Part shown: piece after piece, positions 20,434 through 29,936 of the stretch
Layout of the letters: each line of letters opens with the position of its first letter
Numbering within the stretch: position 1 is the stretch's first letter
Assembly (NCBI RefSeq): GCF_003367075.2
Contig: NZ_CP065936.1
Span: forward strand, 2,460,001 to 2,492,000
Reading direction: 5' to 3'
DNA length: 32,000 nucleotides
From: Cylindrospermopsis raciborskii Cr2010
GTDB lineage: Bacteria; Cyanobacteriota; Cyanobacteriia; Cyanobacteriales; Nostocaceae
Made by a program: the position numbers and the translations under genes
The notes under the pieces: model-generated
Told to the model about the DNA's origin: nothing
Database searches by the model: none
The model's input: only the letters and a program-made list of their open reading frames with translations

Positions 20434-21414
20434 ATGAGTAATTCCAGTGTTTTGTGTCTTGGCGAGATTTTATTTGATTGTCTAGCTGATCAAATAGGTC
20501 TAAAATTAGAAGAAGTGAACTCCTGGACTCCTTACCCGGGGGGAGCTCCTGCTAATGTGGCCTGTGCTTTGGTTAAACTAGGAACAAAAGCAGGATTTAT
20601 CGGTGCTGTAGGACAGGATGAACCAGGTGACACCCTGGTAAAACTCCTGGGAGATGTAGGTGTAGATACTAGAGGTGTTCAACGCCATCCTACAGCTCCT
20701 ACCCGTCAAGTTTATGTGGTTAGAGACTTGAATGGCGATCGCACTTTTGCTGGATTTGGTAAATATCATACCAGGGAGTTTGCTGACACCTGCTTAAAGG
20801 CCAGTGATTTACCTGAAGAGTTGTTTAACGAAGCGGATTTTTTAGTCTTGGGAACATTAGAATTGGCCTACCCCGAAAGTGAAGCCGCTACTCATCAAGC
20901 TTTAAAACTAGCGGAACGGTATGACTTAAAGATTATTTTGGATGTGAATTGGCGACCTGTGTTTTGGCAAGACAGCGAGTTAGCAAAGCAGAAGATTCAC
21001 CAAATATTACCCAATTGTGATTTTATCAAGCTGACTAAAGAAGAGGGCGAGTGGCTATTTAATACTAGTGATGCCGGGGCAATTACTTATAGAATTAACT
21101 CTTTAGAAGGGGTTTTAGTAACAGATGGAGAAAATGGTTGTTCCTATTGTTTGGCGGAAAATGAGGGCAAACTACCAGCCTTTTCCGTACCCGTGGTGGA
21201 TACCACTGGTGCGGGAGATAGTTTTTTGGCTGGGTTTGTCCATCAGTTAAACCAGTATGGCATTCAAGCTTTAAGCGATCCGCAAATTGCCAAATCTGTT
21301 ATTACCTATGCCAGTGCGGTAGGTGCCATGACTACTATCAACCCAGGAGCGATCGCATCTCAACCAACTGCACAGGAAGTAGAGACTTTTCTCCATCGAT
21401 TTAACCCCGAATGA
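20434..21414 (+). CDS. PfkB-family carbohydrate kinase (fructokinase-like)
   Basis: 326 aa with an N-terminal VLCLGEILFDC...PGGAPANVA and the C-terminal PfkB signature DTTGAGDSFLAGF. Confidence 0.85.
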   Translation: MSNSSVLCLGEILFDCLADQIGLKLEEVNSWTPYPGGAPANVACALVKLGTKAGFIGAVGQDEPGDTLVKLLGDVGVDTRGVQRHPTAPTRQVYVVRDLNGDRTFAGFGKYHTREFADTCLKASDLPEELFNEADFLVLGTLELAYPESEAATHQALKLAERYDLKIILDVNWRPVFWQDSELAKQKIHQILPNCDFIKLTKEEGEWLFNTSDAGAITYRINSLEGVLVTDGENGCSYCLAENEGKLPAFSVPVVDTTGAGDSFLAGFVHQLNQYGIQALSDPQIAKSVITYASAVGAMTTINPGAIASQPTAQEVETFLHRFNPE

Positions 21415-22981
21415 CAACGATTGCTCTACCCCCTGGACTGACCACTTCTTCTGTAGTCGTGCGTTCTTCAATGGGAAGTAAACCAGGACGGCGATCGAAG
21501 ATGACTAACCAACCCGTATGGAGTCCCAGTCCCGCGAGATATTTGTCTAACTGTTGGAGTCCCTGGGGGAGTGGATCTTTCTTACCCGGTTTCCACACCT
21601 TCAGTTCCATCCCCATCACCACTGCACCGTAGCGCAAACAAATATCCATGCGACCTGAGCCGATCGCGTACTCCCGCTCTAACCTACCGCCACCATTCAG
21701 TACGCGATGCAAAAACGCCATTAACACCAGATGAGGAGCAATTTCATGGTAAGGCGCACTTTTCAAAAGAGGTTCCCCATGTTGTCGCCAAAAGTCCAGA
21801 AAAGACCCCAGTAGTGCCTCTGGATTCAGGCTACGATCAGGGTTTAGCCAATGGGGATTAAGAGAAGGTGCAGGTAAGGAAGCAGTGGTTACATAAGCCA
21901 GCACCCTGGGAATAATCTCTTTGTAAATTGGGTTAGCTACTTGCAAGCCACTGCCATTTTGCAAGCGGCAAAGTCCTAAATCCAGTAACAGTTGTACATC
22001 ATCCTCTGGTATATTCCCCAGTTCATCACCAGATAACATGGGTTCAAAAATAGCCTGAATTTCAGGCTCTCGCAACCGCTTCACTAAGCTATCTAGGTGG
22101 GTTTCTTGACGTTGAATAATCAATTCCTTCGCCTGAGCAACCTCTGCAACGGTAATGGGCTGAGTGGGATCAGTGACTAAGACTTCCACCAGTTGACGAG
22201 CGATCGCATTGACTAACCAGGGTTGCCCTTGGGTTAAATGAAACACTAACGCCACGGCTTCTGGTAAAAACACCTGTCCCGTTGCGTCCGTGTGTTGCTG
22301 GTAGAGAGTAGTCACCTCTGAAAGGGTGAAGTTACTGAGGGTAAAGGACTCTAGTTTTATATTAAAGGGGCTAGCAGTATTGAGGCGAAAACTACCACCA
22401 GAAGCAACCTTGTAATCCCGTACATCTCGCACCCCAATCAAGGCTAGGGAATGGGGAAAACCGTGGGGACGGAGGGGAAAACCGGCTCGTAACTGTCGCA
22501 GCACTGTAATCAGGGTTTCATCTTCCAGACTGTCAATTTCATCTAAAAAGACCACCAGAGGACGAGGAGAAGCGAGAGTCCAAGCCTGAAGATAGGTTTT
22601 AATATCCAAATCACTGGGGTCAAGTAAACCCATTTCTTCTTGAATGTCTCGCAACTTGGGTGGTTGTAGTTCCCCAGGTAAAGTTACCTTAGTCGTGCCA
22701 ATCCAACTCCGAATAATATATTTTTCAGCCAGTATAGGGTCATGTTTGAAGGCGGATCCGGTTTCTACTGACAGAACAATCGCTGTGTAGTTACCACTTT
22801 CTGTTAACTGCTGTGCGAGGGTCATCATAGCAGTGGTTTTTCCCGTTTGACGGGGAGCATGAATGACAAAATAACCTCGCTGATCAATCAGGTTCCCTAA
22901 GGTGGGAAGACGATCGAGGGATGAAAGCATATAGTGGATGTCGGATTGGCAGGGGCCAGCGGTGTTAAAGTGTTTGGGCAT
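21401..22981 (-). CDS. P-loop ATPase fused to a C-terminal PD-(D/E)xK nuclease-like domain
   Basis: 526 aa. Walker A is HAPRQTGKTT and Walker B is LVVFLDEID. The C-terminal GRMDICL...MGMELKVWK forms a D...ExK motif. The N-terminus MPKHFNTAGPC..DIHYML resembles the AAA-ATPase-like/PDDEXK_9 type family as I recall it. Confidence 0.8.
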   Translation of the reverse strand: MPKHFNTAGPCQSDIHYMLSSLDRLPTLGNLIDQRGYFVIHAPRQTGKTTAMMTLAQQLTESGNYTAIVLSVETGSAFKHDPILAEKYIIRSWIGTTKVTLPGELQPPKLRDIQEEMGLLDPSDLDIKTYLQAWTLASPRPLVVFLDEIDSLEDETLITVLRQLRAGFPLRPHGFPHSLALIGVRDVRDYKVASGGSFRLNTASPFNIKLESFTLSNFTLSEVTTLYQQHTDATGQVFLPEAVALVFHLTQGQPWLVNAIARQLVEVLVTDPTQPITVAEVAQAKELIIQRQETHLDSLVKRLREPEIQAIFEPMLSGDELGNIPEDDVQLLLDLGLCRLQNGSGLQVANPIYKEIIPRVLAYVTTASLPAPSLNPHWLNPDRSLNPEALLGSFLDFWRQHGEPLLKSAPYHEIAPHLVLMAFLHRVLNGGGRLEREYAIGSGRMDICLRYGAVVMGMELKVWKPGKKDPLPQGLQQLDKYLAGLGLHTGWLVIFDRRPGLLPIEERTTTEEVVSPGGRAIVVIRG

Positions 22982-22984
22982 GGT

Positions 22985-24343
22985 TTAGCAATGTCGATGA
23001 CAAACTTCTACTAATGTGCTGGTAAAATTAGGATAGGAAATAGCTGCTGCTTCAGCACGATGAATGGTAGTAGTACCAAGAGCATTTAAAGCTGCGATCG
23101 CCAAACTCATGCCAATTCTATGATCTGTATAACTATCCACCTCCGTACCTACTAAAGTAGTACCACCAATAATTTCCATACCATCAGGTAACTCAGTAAC
23201 TCTAGCACCCATTTTATTCAACTGTTGTGCCATTACAGTAATGCGATCGCTCTCCTTGACTCGCAACTCTGCTGCATCTCTTATTATAGTTGTTCCCTTA
23301 GCAAAGGTAGCAGCAACGGACAAAATAGGAATTTCATCAATTAGTCTAGGTATAATATCGCCAGCAATGGTACAACTTTGTAGTTGACTAGAGCGCACAT
23401 GCAAATCAGCAACAGGTTCTCCTGCGACTTCCCGCTGATTTTCTAATTGGATATTTGCTCCCATAATAGTCAAAGCTTCCAGAATTCCTGTGCGGGTGGG
23501 ATTGACACCGACATTTTCTACCACTAAATCAGATCCAGGAACAATAGATCCAGCAACCAACCAAAAAGCAGCAGAGCTGATATCACCAGGAACAATCACC
23601 TTCTGACCATAAAGTTTAGCGTTACCCGTAATAGTCACACTATTGCTTCCTGGGTCTATGGTTAAATCCGCTCCAAAAGCCTTTAACATTCGTTCACTGT
23701 GATCTCGAGATAAAGCTGGCTCTGTTACCGTAGTTTTTCCTTCCGTGTTCAAACCAGCAAGAAGAATACAAGATTTGACCTGAGCTGAAGCAATGGGGGA
23801 GTGATAATGGATGGGTTTAAGAGATTGCCCTTGAATAGCTAAAGGTGCTAAAGTATTACCCTTTCTACCCCAGATTTGAGCTGACATTTGTTGTAAAGGC
23901 TTGACCACACGGGACATGGGACGCGATCGCAAGGAATCATCACCAGTCACAGCGAAAAATCTGCCAGGATGGGAAGCTAACAAACCCAACATTAGGCGAA
24001 TAGTCGTACCCGAGTTGCCCGCATTTAAAACATCGAGAGGTTCTTGGAAATTCCCTAAACCAATACCCTTAACCCGCACCAACTGGGTGTTCAAATCAGA
24101 AATTTCCGCACCCAGAGAACGAAAACAGCTGGAGGTGCTGCGGGGATCCTCACCCAATAGCAGTCCTTGAATTTCCGTTTCTCCCTCAGCAATAGCTCCC
24201 AACATCAAAGCGCGATGAGAAATAGACTTATCACCGGGAACCTGAATGCGACCTTGTAGAGACAAATCGGAATCAGATCTGTGAATAATTAAGTTATGAG
24301 AACCAGTTTCTTGAGTTTCTAAGGTTATAATATCAGCTGACAT
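22985..24343 (-). CDS. aroA: 3-phosphoshikimate 1-carboxyvinyltransferase (EPSP synthase)
   Basis: 452 aa with [38 protein letters not shown] and RVKESDR motifs. Confidence 0.95.
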
Positions 24344-24490: not shown

Positions 24491-25009
24491 TTGATCATGC
24501 TCACTCATCACCACAAACCCGTTTGTTTATCTATTATTTCCACCGATTTACCAGTTTGGTCAGTGGTGGAAACTCCTGCTACCCTATATCAAAAAGATAG
24601 TGAAAGGTTTCACCTACTTCTAACAGCACCCCCCTTAATTAGTTGTGAAGCAGACAATATGTCCACTACGGAAAATGCGATCGCTCCCATCCACAAACAT
24701 TTGCAAACCCCTCCCAGTCCCAGAGTTTTATGGTTAGAGATTTCACCCTACCGAATAACCATGACCATGCAGGGTAATACTCAAATCAGTTACAGGCATT
24801 TTTGGGAGAAAGGGGTTTATGGAATTAGTCGCTATTGGCTACCTCTGGAATCTTTACAACCATGCCAACCCATTCGCTTACGTAATTTTACCACTAATCT
24901 AAAATTAACTGGAAAAATTTTGCCAGAAAATTTACGGATTGAATATGAATTGTGGTCGCAAAAGTTGCAATTGGGTCGATACATTCTCAACTTGGAAATT
25001 CATCATTGA
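24491..25009 (+). CDS. hypothetical protein upstream of the ThyA-fold gene (start uncertain: TTG 24491, ATG 24497 or ATG 24659)
   Basis: ORF of 172 aa, or 116 aa from the internal ATG. The stop lies 9 nt before the next start, which suggests co-transcription. I recognise no family. Confidence 0.45.
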   Translation: MIMLTHHHKPVCLSIISTDLPVWSVVETPATLYQKDSERFHLLLTAPPLISCEADNMSTTENAIAPIHKHLQTPPSPRVLWLEISPYRITMTMQGNTQISYRHFWEKGVYGISRYWLPLESLQPCQPIRLRNFTTNLKLTGKILPENLRIEYELWSQKLQLGRYILNLEIHH

Positions 25010-25018
25010 TCTGTTCAT

Positions 25019-26551
25019 ATGACACCAGAAGTTAAAATGGATAGATTTAATTACATTGCAAAGTATAAAAGCAATCAATTGATTTACGGTCATGGAAACA
25101 CAGCAGTAGTAACTGGTTGGACCGTAAAAGAAGCCCTATGTAAACGTCTACAACCATCCGAGTATGCAGTTATTGGACAGTTGTACTCATCAACTAGGGG
25201 GATAAATATATTAGTTCGCAATTTGTTGTTAAATCCCCATGTGCACTATTTAATAGTTATAAATGCTACTAAAGAAGATAAAAATGCTGGTGCTATAGAA
25301 TGTTTGCTAGATTTTTTTGCTCATGGTGTGGAAGAAAATTTTAGTGCTAGTGGTCGCAGGTCTTGGGTAATTTGCTCTTCTATTACTGGATATATAGATA
25401 TTGATATTGACCTGAATGCTTTAGAAAAACTACGTCACAGTATAGAGGTAGCAACAGCAAAATCAATTTCCCTAGCGGTGGAAAAAATTAAATATTACGC
25501 CCAAAAACCTATGATTGCTCCTTGGGGTATGGCACTAGAATTTCCCATATCTCAGTTTGAAACCACAATTTTACCGGGGGTACGCTACGGCCATAGAATA
25601 GAAGGTAAAACCATAGCTGAAACCTGGGTGAAGATTATCCATCGGATTAAAACCACAGGGATAATTAGACCTAGTGCTTATGATAGTCAATGGCAAGAAT
25701 TAATCGATTTAATGGCAATTATCACCGATGAACCTGATGATTTTTATTTTCCTGAGCCTAATTATTTACCCATCGAAAGAAGCTATTTACCAGAATATAT
25801 TTCCCAGGTTTTAGATGATGCTCCTGACCAAGAAGGTGTCAAATATACTTATGGGAAAAGATTACGTTCTTGGTTTGGCAAAGACCAAATTCAACAGGTC
25901 ATTGATAAATTAATTAATGATCCTGATTCTGCTAGAGCAGTCATGTCTTTATGGGATGCGGTCAAGGATGAGCATGACAGTCCACCCTGTTTAAATCATA
26001 TTTGGGTGAGAATAGTAGATGATCAATTATCTCTAACAGCAACATTCCGTAGTAATGATATGTTTTCTGCTTGGCCAGCCAATGGGATGGGATTAAGAGC
26101 TTTACAAAAATATATTTATGATGGCATTGTCCGGGGATCTGATATTCATCAGAACCTCCAACTTGGACCGTTAATTACTGTTAGTCAAAGTGCTCATATT
26201 TATGATGAATGCTGGGAACATGCAGAAAATGTAATTGCTTCCCACTACCACAAAATATGCCAAAAAAAGGATTACTATGACCCAGCTGGCAACTTTATTA
26301 TTTACCTCCAAAATGGTAGCATTATAGTGGAGCATACTACTCCTAATTCAGGCGAAGTAGTTAATTGTTATTCTGGTAAATCCTCCACTCAACTCTCCCG
26401 AGAAATAACATTAAATTCTCCCGGACTACAAGTTGACCACGCTATGTATTTGGGTTCGGAATTACAAAAGGCCGAAATAGCTCTATCCAGTGACTATCAC
26501 CTGATTTATCAACAGGATAAACCCTTGAAGTTTAGTCTGAACCCGGCTTAA
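25019..26551 (+). CDS. thymidylate-synthase (ThyA) fold protein with additional N- and C-terminal domains
   Basis: 510 aa. The central region carries ThyA-like motifs [36 protein letters not shown] (putative catalytic Cys), [26 protein letters not shown] and SQSAHIY. The flanking ~190-aa N-terminal and ~100-aa C-terminal regions are not ThyA-like. Confidence 0.8.
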
Positions 26552-27558
26552 ACCTGATAGTATTCCCTATACCATTTAACAAACTGTCTCACTCCCACCT
26601 CGATAGGAGTATCAGGCTTAAAGTTAACGTCTTGAATTAAATCATCAACATCCGCATAGGTGATAGTCACATCTCCAGGTTGTAGGGGTAGCATATTTTT
26701 TTTGGCTTTTATCCCTAGGCACTGTTCTATAACTTCAATGAAGTGCATTAACTCTACCGGACTGTTATTGCCAATATTATATATTTTGTATGGCGCTCTA
26801 CTGCTACCAGGATCAGGAATATCACTAACCCAGTTAGGATTGCTTTGAGGGATAGTATCTATAACTCTTACTACCCCTTCGATAATATCATCAATATAAG
26901 TGAAGTCACGCTTCATTTTACCATAATTAAAAACATCTATGGGCTGTCCGGATAAAATAGCTTTGGTAAATGAAAAGTAGGCCATATCTGGCCTTCCCCA
27001 AGGACCATAAACAGTAAAGAAGCGTAGTCCAGTAATGGGTAATTCATACAGATGACTGTAAGTATGTGCCATTAGCTCATTAGCTTTTTTAGTAGCTGCG
27101 TATAAACTAATAGGATGATCCACATTGTCATGGGTAGAAAATGGTATTTTGGTATTAGCTCCATAAACAGAGCTAGAGGAAGCAAATACTAAGTGTTTCA
27201 CTCCATAGTGACGACAAGCTTCTAAAACATTAGTAAATCCTATGATATTACTATCAATATAAGCGTGAGGATTTTTTATGGAATATCTGACCCCAGCTTG
27301 AGCTGCTAGATTAACAACCACATCAAATTGGTGTTGGGCAAATAAATTGTTGACCCTCTCGCGATCAGCTAAATCTAGGGGGATGAAGCTAAATAGTTTA
27401 TTGTGGGGTTCTAATTGCACCAATCGAGCTTGTTTTAAAGATACATCGTAGTAGCTGTTCAGATTGTCAATTCCTACCACATAGTCACCCCGATTTAATA
27501 GGTAGTTACTCAGATGGAATCCAATAAAGCCTGCTGCGCCAGTAACTAAGATTTTCAT
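26548..27558 (-). CDS. NAD-dependent epimerase/dehydratase, UDP-glucuronate 4-epimerase-like
   Basis: 336 aa. [16 protein letters not shown] is the Rossmann GxxGxxG motif and YAATKKANE is the catalytic YxxxK. The overall pattern is that of the CapI/LpsL-type extended SDR family. Confidence 0.88.
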
Positions 27559-27639
27559 AATACTTCCTAATGATAATAATGGTTATCCCCCATGAACATA
27601 GATATTGTTATTATATGGTTTAATTGTTATATACTTATA

Positions 27640-27712
27640 TACCCCCAGGGGAATTCGAATCCCCGTTACCTCCGTGAAAGGGAGATGTCCTAGGCCTCTA
27701 GACGATGGGGGC
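27640..27712 (-). tRNA. trnE: tRNA-Glu (anticodon UUC)
   Basis: The reverse complement is GCCCCCATCGTCTAGAGGCCTAGGACATCTCCCTTTCACGGAGGTAACGGGGATTCGAATTCCCCTGGGGGTA. It folds as a cloverleaf: acceptor GCCCCCA/TGGGGGT, anticodon stem TCTCC/GGAGG with loop CTTTCAC, and T-arm GGGGA-TTCGAAT-TCCCC. It closely parallels E. coli tRNA-Glu. CCA is not encoded. Confidence 0.93.
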
Positions 27713-27731
27713 GCTGGACTTCACTGTTATT

Positions 27732-27760
27732 AACCTACCCTATTATTTCGGGAATGTCAA
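27732..27760 (-). promoter_or_regulatory. candidate tRNA-Glu promoter (-35 TTGACA, 17-nt spacer, -10 TAGGTT)
   Basis: On the minus strand, TTGACA is the complement of 27755-27760 and TAGGTT is the complement of 27732-27737, about 20 nt upstream of the mature tRNA 5' end. Confidence 0.3.
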
Positions 27761-28043
27761 CTAGTTTAAGAAAAATTTTTTTTGCTAACTTTTTTGGGTA
27801 AGAGTAAACCTCTTAATTGCAGCAATTGCACATCTTTCAATCCAAGATTTCCTCACATTTCCGACATAATATGCCCAGCGGGTGGCTAAATCCGGAAAAA
27901 ACATGTAATATAGGGAGCCAAGTAGAAAAAACGCCCTCGGATTCGTCATGACGGGAATGTTATTTAGACTTGTAAACTTACACTTGTAACTATTGAAGAG
28001 GTTAATTAAAGGATTTTGAGGCCAAGATCACAAAATCCACAAC

Positions 28044-29936
28044 ATGGAAACATCTTTTCAAATCACTTTACAAATGGTACTAACGGTTCTGGTAGGTATT
28101 AGTGCCCAGGTGATGGCTGCACACTTCCGTCTGCCAAGTATCGTACTACTACTCCTCTTGGGCATCATCCTGGGTAATGATGGTGTGGGAATATTACATC
28201 CTCAATTATTAGGTATCGGATTAGAAGTGATTGTCTCCCTAGCAACGGCAATCATCTTATTTGAAGGTGGACTGAAATTGGACTTCCGTGAGGTGGGTAG
28301 GGTTTCAGTGAGTTTGCAACTGTTAGTAACCCTGGGGACTTTAATTACCTTGCTGGGTGGGAGTATGGCAGCCCATTGGCTAGGAGAATTTCCCTGGAAC
28401 TTGGCCTTTCTTTACGCCTCCATAGTTGTAGTTACTGGACCAACTGTTATTGGACCATTAGTTAAACAAATTAATGTAGATAAGCAAGTTGCTACCCTAT
28501 TAGAAGGGGAAGGGGTTTTAATTGATCCTGTGGGGGCAATTTTGGCTTATGTGGTGCTGGATACCATTGTTAATGGCGATCCGGATCCCATGGGAGCAAT
28601 TATGGGTCTAATAATGCGACTGGGTGTGGGAGGGATTATTGGAGTTCTAGGCGGTTTAGTCATGAGCATGGTCTTCAAACGTGCCAACTTCCTCTCCTTT
28701 GAACTGAAAAATCTGGTAGTTTTAGCATTGCTATGGGGTCTGTTTACCATGGCGCAAGCCATCCGCAGCGAATCTGGGGTAATGACCACAGTTGTAGCGG
28801 GTGCGGTATTTGCTAACTCATCCGTTCCCGAAGAACGCTTATTACGCAGCTTTAAAAATCAACTGACAATTCTGGGCGTTTCCGTACTGTTTATTTTATT
28901 GGCAGCGGATTTATCTATTGCTAGTGTTTTTGCCCTAGGTTGGGGCAGTTTATTTACCGTCCTGGTATTAATGTTTGTAGTGCGTCCAATTAATATTCTT
29001 TTGTGTACTTGGAATAGTGGTCTGAATTGGCGGCAAAAGTTGTTTTTAAGTTGGGTTGCTCCCAGGGGAATAGTTTCCGCCTCTGTAGCTTCATTATTTG
29101 CCATTTCCCTAACCCAACATGGAATTAATGGTGGAGATGCCATTAAGGCTTTAGTATTTCTGACTATTATTATGACTGTTTTTTGTCAGGGTTTAACAGC
29201 TTCATGGCTCGTGAAATGCCTAGGAATTACTTCAGAAAATTTAACAGGAGCCTTGATAGTTGGCTGTAATCCCCTCAGTTTGCTGATTGCTCGCTTTTTC
29301 CAGGAACGGGGAGAGAAGGTAGTAATAATTGATACTGATTCAGAATATTTAGCTCAGGCGGAAGCTCAAAACTTGCCTGTGGTTGTGAATAGTGCTTTAG
29401 ATGCTCAGGTTTTAGAAAATGCGGGTATTGCTAAAATAGGTACATTCATAGCAATGACTAACAATGGAGAAGTGAATTTTGTTTTGTCCCAGCGGGCAGC
29501 AGAAGAGTTCAATCCACCTCGAGTTTTGGCCATATTCCCCCGAGATCCTCATGGTAATGTTTCAGTTCATAGTAGGGTCAGTCAGGCTTTTGTTTCTGAC
29601 CTACCAATAAAAACCTGGAATGAGTATTTGAGCGGTGGTAGGGTGAAATTGGGAAATACAACTTTAAACGAAGAAGAATTTGAAAGTCAACAGCAGCATA
29701 TTCAGGAAAAGATTCGCACTGGCGTACTAGTGCCCTTGTTATTGGAAAGAGAAGAAAGGTTACAGGTAATATCGGTGAATGAAACTTGGGAAGTGGGCGA
29801 TCGCATTATTTATCTGTTGTATGATTCCCGACCAAGTCTGTTAAAACTTCTCTCTGGATCCAGTCAGTCCGGGGTTTTAGCCTTAGAAACTTTACCAGAG
29901 GTGGAGGAAAAAATGCCTATGAGCAAATTCTTTTGA
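28044..29936 (+). CDS. cation:proton antiporter (CPA1, NhaP-type) with C-terminal RCK/TrkA-N-like domain
   Basis: 630 aa. About 390 aa of polytopic membrane domain carry Na+/H+ exchanger motifs (LFEGGL, VVTGPTV, IDPVGAIL). A soluble tail follows, beginning LIVGCNPLSLLIARFFQERGEKVVIIDTD. Confidence 0.88.
   Translation: METSFQITLQMVLTVLVGISAQVMAAHFRLPSIVLLLLLGIILGNDGVGILHPQLLGIGLEVIVSLATAIILFEGGLKLDFREVGRVSVSLQLLVTLGTLITLLGGSMAAHWLGEFPWNLAFLYASIVVVTGPTVIGPLVKQINVDKQVATLLEGEGVLIDPVGAILAYVVLDTIVNGDPDPMGAIMGLIMRLGVGGIIGVLGGLVMSMVFKRANFLSFELKNLVVLALLWGLFTMAQAIRSESGVMTTVVAGAVFANSSVPEERLLRSFKNQLTILGVSVLFILLAADLSIASVFALGWGSLFTVLVLMFVVRPINILLCTWNSGLNWRQKLFLSWVAPRGIVSASVASLFAISLTQHGINGGDAIKALVFLTIIMTVFCQGLTASWLVKCLGITSENLTGALIVGCNPLSLLIARFFQERGEKVVIIDTDSEYLAQAEAQNLPVVVNSALDAQVLENAGIAKIGTFIAMTNNGEVNFVLSQRAAEEFNPPRVLAIFPRDPHGNVSVHSRVSQAFVSDLPIKTWNEYLSGGRVKLGNTTLNEEEFESQQQHIQEKIRTGVLVPLLLEREERLQVISVNETWEVGDRIIYLLYDSRPSLLKLLSGSSQSGVLALETLPEVEEKMPMSKFF

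Follow-up and report, generated by a model that had tools for sequence, protein, structure and literature searches.

A probable cyanobacterial thymidylate synthase whose minimal ThyA-family core is flanked by MtrA-like and DUF4346 domains

Introduction

Cells cannot do without thymidylate synthesis, which is also a drug target; to our knowledge, two enzyme classes, ThyA and ThyX, cover it in all life. Here, we describe a thymidylate synthase (TS)-like gene in a window of 32,000 nucleotides from Cylindrospermopsis raciborskii Cr2010 (contig NZ_CP065936.1, positions 2,460,001 to 2,492,000). Its 510-residue product, hereafter the fusion, comprises an N-terminal domain with the fold of the methanogen protein MtrA, a ThyA-family core of archaeal type, and a C-terminal DUF4346 domain. 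We consider it probable, at roughly 70%, that the fusion is the cell's ThyA-family thymidylate synthase, and that it replaces ThyX in a subset of cyanobacteria. The gene had been singled out in an earlier note made from the sequence alone, in which it was viewed as unlikely to be a plain housekeeping enzyme.

The closest described systems each resemble one portion of the fusion. Classical ThyA of E. coli (PF00303) shares its fold, the residues of covalent catalysis (Cys, Arg-Ser-x-Asp, Asn, His-x-Tyr and Tyr94) and a gene context in the deoxyuridine monophosphate (dUMP) pathway, but the fusion lacks the W80/W83 loop, residues 222–264 and one Arg of the DSRR motif, and carries two extra domains. 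The methanogen-type enzymes (TIGR03283, about 200 residues) are, like the fusion core, minimal and without the bacterial C-terminal tail; they consist of a stand-alone core, whereas the fusion has an MtrA-like and a DUF4346 domain in addition, and its hosts are cyanobacteria that use folate, and phages. MtrA and its cytoplasmic homologues (PF04208; structures 5LAA and 5L8X) have their fold and a detectable sequence homology in common with the N-terminal domain, which is soluble, as are the cytoplasmic homologues (PMC4915002). Unlike MtrA, the N-terminal domain has neither His84 nor Glu54, lacks most of the GAIPF(Y/F)xEN motif, and has no membrane anchor or Mtr partners. The bifunctional dihydrofolate reductase (DHFR)-TS enzymes of protists and plants likewise join an N-terminal accessory domain to a TS within about 500 residues, and are listed by Foldseek through their TS part. 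The accessory domain of the fusion, however, has the MtrA fold rather than that of DHFR, and there is a third, C-terminal domain; DHFR is neither matched in the fusion by Pfam nor found among the significant fold matches of the N-terminal domain. Lastly, the TS-fold pyrimidine hydroxymethylases and hydroxylases (T4 gp42, MilA and AfhB of phage HY126) are the best Foldseek matches and are phage-borne, as the fusion is. These enzymes act on (d)CMP and have an Asp at the base-reading position, whereas the fusion has Asn355 and neighbouring genes for dUMP supply.

Results and discussion

The thymidylate synthase core

Queries were made for E. coli ThyA, FolA and Tmk and for M. tuberculosis ThyX; those for ThyA and ThyX gave the kind of matches to be expected of them. 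Conservation figures refer to 64 diverse relatives of the fusion, with a lowest identity of 31%. In BLASTP and phmmer alignments with E. coli ThyA, Cys324 aligns with Cys146, R344/S345/D347 align with R166/S167/D169, N355 aligns with N177, and Y278 aligns with Y94. The segment SAH393-I-Y395 aligns with DTHLY, with H393 and Y395 equivalent to H207 and Y209. All of these residues (C324, R344, S345, D347, N355, H393/Y395 and Y278) are at least 90% conserved. The earlier note had proposed a ThyA fold with a retained catalytic Cys, R-S-x-D, Asn and H-x-Y, a proposal that these alignments and conservation values bear out; every motif that it quoted is present in the protein, and the Cys of PPCLNH, which it had marked for comparison with the catalytic Cys, is Cys324.

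Pfam matches the ThyA family (PF00303) at residues 274–408 (E = 3e-15, 56.6 bits against a gathering cut-off of 24.3), the central position that the note had expected, and does so in all 64 sampled relatives. The best NCBIfam match is the methanogen-type TS TIGR03283, which covers residues 194–400 and model positions 3–199 of 201 (E = 6e-41). A profile alignment with E. coli ThyA made with hhalign spans only residues 273–407, corresponding to E. coli 88–221, so the core lacks the W80/W83 folate loop as well as the C-terminal closing segment. The DUF4346 domain starts at the place of the bacterial C-terminal tail.

An AlphaFold model of the full-length protein has a predicted local distance difference test (pLDDT) score of 95 and a predicted template modelling (pTM) score of 0.91. 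Foldseek recovered the TS fold for the core, as anticipated in the note, with ThyA, T4 dCMP hydroxymethylase, MilA and the flavin-dependent dCMP hydroxylase AfhB matching about equally (E ~ 1e-11); the best matches are 9iqu (target template modelling (TM) score 0.80), 5jnh and 1b49. The presence of Asn355 rather than Asp at the base-reading position points to uracil rather than cytosine as the base recognised.

The MtrA-like and DUF4346 domains

The MtrA match of the N-terminal domain is weak for the single sequence (PF04208, 11.8 bits against a cut-off of 25, E = 0.19; NF002126, E = 2e-6, below the cut-off of that NCBIfam model). A profile of the domain family, on the other hand, matches the MtrA crystal structure 5LAA with E = 2e-7, and PF04208 is matched by 23/64 relatives (best E = 4.7e-22). 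The modelled domain (pLDDT 95.6) has the Rossmann-type fold of MtrA, and its sole significant fold matches in the PDB are MtrA structures, with TM scores of 0.61–0.71. The suggestion in the earlier note that some 190 N-terminal residues are MtrA-like thus stands. The conserved motifs of the domain are GW34T, IGxLY56S, R67-N68-LLxN72-P73 and GYID, in which W34 is invariant and N68, N72 and P73 are more than 90% conserved. Residues of the nucleotide-tail pocket of MtrA, namely G57, V61 and N64 followed by N-P, align with the conserved G61, L65, N68 and N72-P73 of the fusion.

MtrA coordinates cobalt through His84, and Glu54 forms a hydrogen bond with this ligand (PMC4915002). No member examined has a His or Glu at the equivalent positions in pairwise, profile or multiple alignments; these are occupied by Asn/Ala/Ser and Ser/Pro/Ala, respectively, and the His84 loop is variable, with a four-residue indel. 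Members that score highly against the Pfam MtrA model also lack a His at the His84 position. Cobalamin binding in the His-on mode of MtrA was rejected for the family, given that every member examined lacks His84 and Glu54.

At the C-terminus, the PterinBD-DUF4346 domain (PF14251) is matched at residues 421–500 (E = 1e-22, 80.9 bits against 29.6, model positions 2–86 of 86) and in 64/64 relatives, in agreement with what the note had recognised there. Its motifs are DPxGNF, H474AxYLGxE481 and YxQ499D, and a profile search detected no relative of the domain with a solved structure. DUF4346 is also part of the NCBIfam models NF002128 (an MtrA-type protein) and TIGR00284 (a dihydropteroate-synthase-like protein), and on the strength of these models it appears to keep company with corrinoid and pterin modules.

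The Methanobacteriales virus vir249 (BK063678.1; 3499–5124) encodes a TS of 230 residues flanked by overlapping hypothetical genes of 157 and 159 residues, with dCTP deaminase and guanylate kinase genes nearby. These TS-flanking proteins were tried as MtrA-like partners and rejected, with an hhalign probability below 1% against the MtrA-like domain.

Distribution of the family

The family has more than 1,500 homologues, mostly 495–520 residues long (1,578 by a word-indexed search). The best 120 of the 1,578 are all cyanobacterial, have 495–535 residues and 65–100% identity, and are annotated either as "thymidylate synthase" or as "DUF4346 domain-containing protein". An exhaustive search of cluster representatives at 50% identity returned 2,774 matches, 359 of them at E ≤ 1e-30; most of these have all three domains at full length, with identities that go as low as about 31%. 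In a scan of one genome per species, which found about 400 relatives, the best 80 are all from cyanobacteria: Nostocales, Oscillatoriales, Chroococcidiopsidales, Leptolyngbya, Thermosynechococcaceae, Crocosphaera and Prochloron. The closest named genome among these 80 is Raphidiopsis brookii D9, at 85% identity. Across cyanobacterial orders, the fusion is 62–85% identical, and it has been kept in the small or eroded genomes of R. brookii D9, Trichormus azollae and Prochloron. The gene in the window is a typical representative of a ThyA variant that is known but uncharacterised; databases already hold the name thymidylate synthase and the domain matches for such proteins.

The fusion is also encoded by 95 viral contigs of IMG/VR, which reach 200 kb, at 43–69% identity. 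The full architecture was found in none of the sequenced phages, plasmids or BFVD viral structures, so that its viral occurrences are confined to metagenomic contigs. About 40 related contigs of freshwater phages (among L104–L150, IMG/VR) have an insertion of some 30 residues immediately before the catalytic PPCLNH, with NrdA and NrdB genes adjoining. A 33%-identical member on a Logan contig (L088, SRR22388078; 8001–9470) lies beside enolase, phosphoglycerate mutase-like, pyruvate kinase and TrmB genes, which is a housekeeping context and possibly that of a non-cyanobacterial organism.

Genomic context of the fusion

All open reading frames (ORFs) in 82 non-redundant cyanobacterial loci were clustered, and recurrent clusters were annotated with Pfam. 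The ancestral Nostocales order, in which > and < denote the two orientations, is AroA< (small ORF>) UP170> AhpC< HLIP< FUSION> [dcd< or dCMP-deaminase>] CobO-like< adk> rph> pgl>, where UP170 is a 170-residue protein of the Nostocales and HLIP a high light-inducible protein. A dCTP deaminase-like gene (PF22769) follows immediately and convergently in 41/82 loci; in 19/82, its slot is taken by a co-oriented dCMP deaminase gene (PF00383), and a dUTPase gene (PF00692) is immediately downstream in 11–14 of the 82. The two deaminases are alternative routes of dUMP supply. Their alternation is seen in Nostocales, Phormidium, Kastovskya, Coleofasciculus, Symploca, Leptolyngbya, Aliterella, Gloeocapsopsis and Thermosynechococcaceae, a spread over lineages that cannot come from a single over-sampled block, and dUMP-supply neighbours recur in at least five cyanobacterial orders.

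Phage loci have a context of nucleotide metabolism as well. Neighbours there include both ribonucleotide reductase subunits (phrog_84 and phrog_86), RusA resolvase and virion structural proteins, and in some viral contigs dCMP deaminase or Tmk is also near the fusion. A distant member of the family, 43% identical, adjoins genes for DCD, thymidylate kinase, Dam methylase and DNA polymerase III alpha, and the rest of its contig is full of hypothetical genes. No ThyX or FolA homologue was found within 8 kb of the fusion in about 170 loci.

A gene of the CobA/CobO/BtuR family (PF02572, E = 1e-30) is located one to two genes downstream of the fusion in 41/82 loci (L010, L029, L035, L043, L054, L078, L080 and others). 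Its product has a degenerate Walker-A/P-loop (VFTSSHRSFFTS). Throughout the cyanobacterial orders, the gene has kept its place beside dcd or dCMP deaminase, and none of the phage loci contains it. Because of the degenerate P-loop and the absence from phages, we read it as synteny with dcd.

In about 32 loci (L014, L023, L040, L052, L057, L060, L071 and others), a second DCD-like protein (PF22769, about 246 residues, with a hydrophobic C-terminal tail) is encoded as a pair with either a dUTPase or a protein weakly similar to nucleoside 2-deoxyribosyltransferases. This pair forms an insertion of variable orientation that separates dcd from the fusion, 0.1–3.6 kb downstream of the latter, and may be a nucleotide-depletion cassette of a mobile or anti-phage kind.

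Housekeeping role and alternative readings

The indirect evidence is in favour of a housekeeping thymidylate synthase: conservation across orders, synteny with dUMP-supply genes, the nucleotide-metabolism modules of phages, retention in small genomes, and published gene counts. In a COG table of 31 cyanobacteria, 23 encode ThyX and 8 encode ThyA, summing to exactly 31 (PMC5954106), which fits one thymidylate synthase per genome. The view of the earlier note that the fusion is unlikely to be a plain housekeeping enzyme finds no support in these counts, in the 62–85% identity across orders, or in the frequency of dcd, dCMP deaminase and dUTPase neighbours. The evidence comes close to the third of the results that the note had named as refuting its view, namely a genome with no other thymidylate synthase and an ordinary folate-dependent enzyme. 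In a set of 202 cyanobacterial genomes, ThyA (K00560) occurs in only a subset, and its gene tree is discordant with the species trees (PMC12873609). For Nostoc PCC 7120, use of ThyX and absence of FolA have been reported (PMC4531292, citing Myllykallio 2003), and a PCC 7120-type genome has no fusion within 10 kb of UP170, the synteny anchor. The Nostoc PCC 7120 phages A-1 and N-1 carry ThyX (PMC4916379). Searching plasmids with the ThyX query returned no cyanobacterial ThyX, and the phage ThyX sequences matched are marine or actinobacterial. The pattern is one of non-orthologous displacement rather than of a second, specialised enzyme.

As a housekeeping enzyme, the fusion would act by the route of classical ThyA. 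Cys324 would attack C6 of dUMP, held in place by R344, S345, D347 and N355, and C5 would then receive a one-carbon unit to give thymidine monophosphate (dTMP), a product suggested by the gene context. The donor would most likely be 5,10-methylene-tetrahydrofolate, given that cyanobacteria are folate prototrophs (PMC1971073). More speculatively, the MtrA-fold and DUF4346 domains may provide a surface for cofactor binding, cofactor handling or oligomerisation that the minimal core lacks. The enzyme, which phages also carry, would take the place of ThyX in a subset of cyanobacteria.

Several points weigh against this reading. The TIGR03283 score of 140.3 bits is below the equivalog cut-off of 174.55, no Trp loop in the fusion core aligns with the W80/W83 folate loop, and the folate-contact residues of ThyA are left unaligned. 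The phosphate-binding Arg pair of the DSRR motif reads DSAR here (A305 and R306), at a position that varies among relatives; in E. coli ThyA, R126' and R127' of the partner subunit bind the phosphate of dUMP. For the stand-alone methanogen-type enzymes themselves, the TIGR03283 description and the work of Krone in 1994 (cited in PMC9931769) reportedly leave the complete reaction and its cofactor unsettled, and the biochemistry of ThyA in methanogens has been called poorly known (PMC9012536). The strong conservation of the N-terminal domain suggests a specific ligand that a housekeeping role does not name. The eight ThyA entries of the COG table may include other architectures, and that the fusion is the sole thymidylate synthase of its host genome is something we infer. 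Our literature search found no paper on the three-domain architecture, PF14251 or TIGR03283, and no enzyme activity is known for the architecture.

Two alternatives keep the TS fold and change the chemistry. In one, which we regard as unlikely, the MtrA-like domain would still have a cofactor bound to it, be it a corrinoid (base-off, His-off) or a different redox or one-carbon carrier, and dTMP is made without producing dihydrofolate, either through methyl transfer from Co-CH3 or through reduction of a methylene intermediate by the bound cofactor, thus removing the need for FolA. The N-terminal domain is after all a true MtrA homologue with aligned nucleotide-tail pocket residues, the usual folate clamp is missing from the core, the best structural match is a flavin-dependent TS-fold enzyme (9iqu/9iqc), and the report of a Nostoc PCC 7120 without folA (PMC4531292) would be in keeping with it; the association of DUF4346 with corrinoid and pterin modules in NF002128 and TIGR00284 keeps this idea alive. 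Yet none of the members examined has His84 or Glu54, there is an indel in the loop, and there is no pterin-binding TIM-barrel domain to reload a corrinoid. The CobA/CobO/BtuR-family gene near the fusion in 41/82 loci would speak for this alternative, but with its degenerate P-loop and its absence from phage loci it looks like synteny with dcd, and phage loci have no cofactor-supply gene in the flanking 8 kb. The other alternative, in which the product is a modified pyrimidine nucleotide (e.g., 5-hydroxymethyl-dUMP) as in the phage TS-fold hydroxymethylases and hydroxylases, seems very improbable. It draws on a structure equally near to AfhB, MilA and T4 dCMP hydroxymethylase, on the frequency of the gene in phages, and on the inability of motifs alone to separate a methylase from a hydroxymethylase. 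Against it, cyanobacterial orders share the fusion as a conserved gene of the chromosome, in a syntenic position passed on by vertical descent, Asn355 specifies uracil, and the neighbours are thymidylate kinase and ribonucleotide reductase, with no glycosyl- or aminotransferases of the hypermodification type in the loci inspected. Furthermore, its host genomes, if they lack ThyX, need the fusion for dTMP.

The earlier note had also paired UP170 with the fusion in an AT-rich stretch. That the two genes work as one unit within an AT-rich island gained by horizontal transfer is a reading that we consider highly improbable. The two genes do share a strand with a spacer of 9 nucleotides, and the discordance of the cyanobacterial ThyA tree with species trees (PMC12873609) would suit horizontal acquisition. 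Even so, in 27 other Nostocales loci the genes are 1.1–4 kb apart with opposite-strand AhpC and HLIP genes between them, and an adjacency of 9–12 nucleotides occurs only in the lineage of the window and in R. brookii D9. In the PCC 7120-type genome without a nearby fusion, UP170 sits among unrelated genes, and no UP170 was found near the fusion outside the Nostocales or in phages. The pairing, for which the note had proposed a test of conservation across cyanobacteria, is therefore not a conserved one, and UP170 was rejected as a functional partner on the grounds of synteny and independent occurrence. The adjacency is a derived deletion state, in which co-transcription of the two genes is probable as a chance outcome of the deletion. 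As to composition, the GC content of the fusion (0.373) is indeed the lowest of the 27 genes in the window (mean 0.425, standard deviation (SD) 0.030), but this is a deviation of only about -1.8 SD, and its GC content at third codon positions (0.280) is matched by three other genes. Likewise, the stretch free of highly iterated palindrome (HIP1) sites noted around the pair does exist (24677 to 29797, 5.1 kb, with 18 sites in the window), but a longer gap of 7.6 kb lies elsewhere, and a maximum gap of at least 5.1 kb has P = 0.67 under random placement of 18 sites. With both deviations within chance and the AroA-UP170-fusion order representing ancestral synteny rather than an insertion, the idea of a foreign AT-rich, HIP1-free island was rejected.

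If the fusion is a housekeeping enzyme, a large share of filamentous and other cyanobacteria, among them bloom-formers and symbionts, together with a clade of freshwater phages, would use a clamp-less ThyA core with added domains. Should the accessory domains merely substitute for the missing folate-binding parts, this would be a case of modular replacement, and would correct the generalisation that cyanobacteria use ThyX. Should they instead alter the cofactor or redox balance, the fusion would bear on the problem of life without FolA and on the cofactor of the archaeal minimal enzymes. It is doubtful that the MtrA-like and DUF4346 domains confer a different cofactor chemistry in which dTMP is made without consuming tetrahydrofolate to dihydrofolate. 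If true, this would amount to a third mechanistic class of thymidylate synthase in many FolA-poor cyanobacteria and their phages, and Rosetta-stone logic would hint at the partner or cofactor of the methanogen-type enzymes.

Features of the locus and neighbouring genes

The coordinates of the fusion, its domains and its neighbours are compiled in Table 1. They confirm the ORF of 510 residues delimited in the earlier note and the upstream ORF that ends 9 nucleotides before it.

Table 1. Features of the fusion locus, in positions of the 32,000-nucleotide window
Feature	Position	Strand	Basis or remark
Three-domain thymidylate synthase gene, 510 residues (MtrA-like domain, TS core, DUF4346)	25019..26551	+	ORF; Pfam and NCBIfam matches; AlphaFold model
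N-terminal MtrA-fold domain, residues ~1–170	25019..25528	+	Family profile, Foldseek
Minimal methanogen-type ThyA catalytic core, residues ~191–412	25589..26254	+	TIGR03283, PF00303, Foldseek
Cys324 codon, predicted catalytic nucleophile in PPC324LNH	25988..25990	+	Alignment with E. coli Cys146
R344-S345-N-D347 ... N355, putative phosphate and uracil contacts	26048..26083	+	Equivalents of E. coli R166, S167, D169 and N177
C-terminal PterinBD-DUF4346 domain, residues 421–500	26279..26518	+	PF14251
UP170, Nostocales-specific hypothetical protein, 170 residues from ATG	24497..25009	+	172 residues if from TTG at 24491; neighbour, outside the enzyme system
Spacer between UP170 and fusion, 9 nucleotides (TGA-tctgttcat-ATG)	25010..25018	+	Sequence read
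aroA (5-enolpyruvylshikimate-3-phosphate synthase), ancestral upstream synteny anchor	22985..24343	-	PF00275; AroA< UP170> order in at least 22 Nostocales loci
NAD-dependent epimerase/dehydratase gene, convergent	26548..27558	-	3' end overlaps the 3' end of the fusion by 4 nucleotides

UP170 is 66–93% identical over its full 170 residues in 31 loci, and its conserved part starts with the third residue of the TTG form, which places its start at the ATG. It has 898 homologues, all from the Nostocales, nearly all of exactly 170 residues and all annotated as "hypothetical protein", and no domain in it was matched by Pfam, NCBIfam or PHROG. Conserved at about 70% identity in virtually all of the Nostocales, it is an orphan protein restricted to this lineage and constant in length, and it has no known structural relative.

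In the window, the epimerase/dehydratase gene occupies the place of the ancestral dcd/dCMP-deaminase neighbour. The fusion gene is identical in the three assemblies GCA_045377475.1, GCA_045377515.1 and GCA_045377415.1. Upstream of aroA, a 526-residue AAA_35/AAA_22 ATPase ORF (21401–22981 of the window, minus strand) is present in GCA_045377475.1 and absent from the two sister assemblies, in which pfkB and aroA are nearly adjacent; this ORF is a strain-variable insertion.

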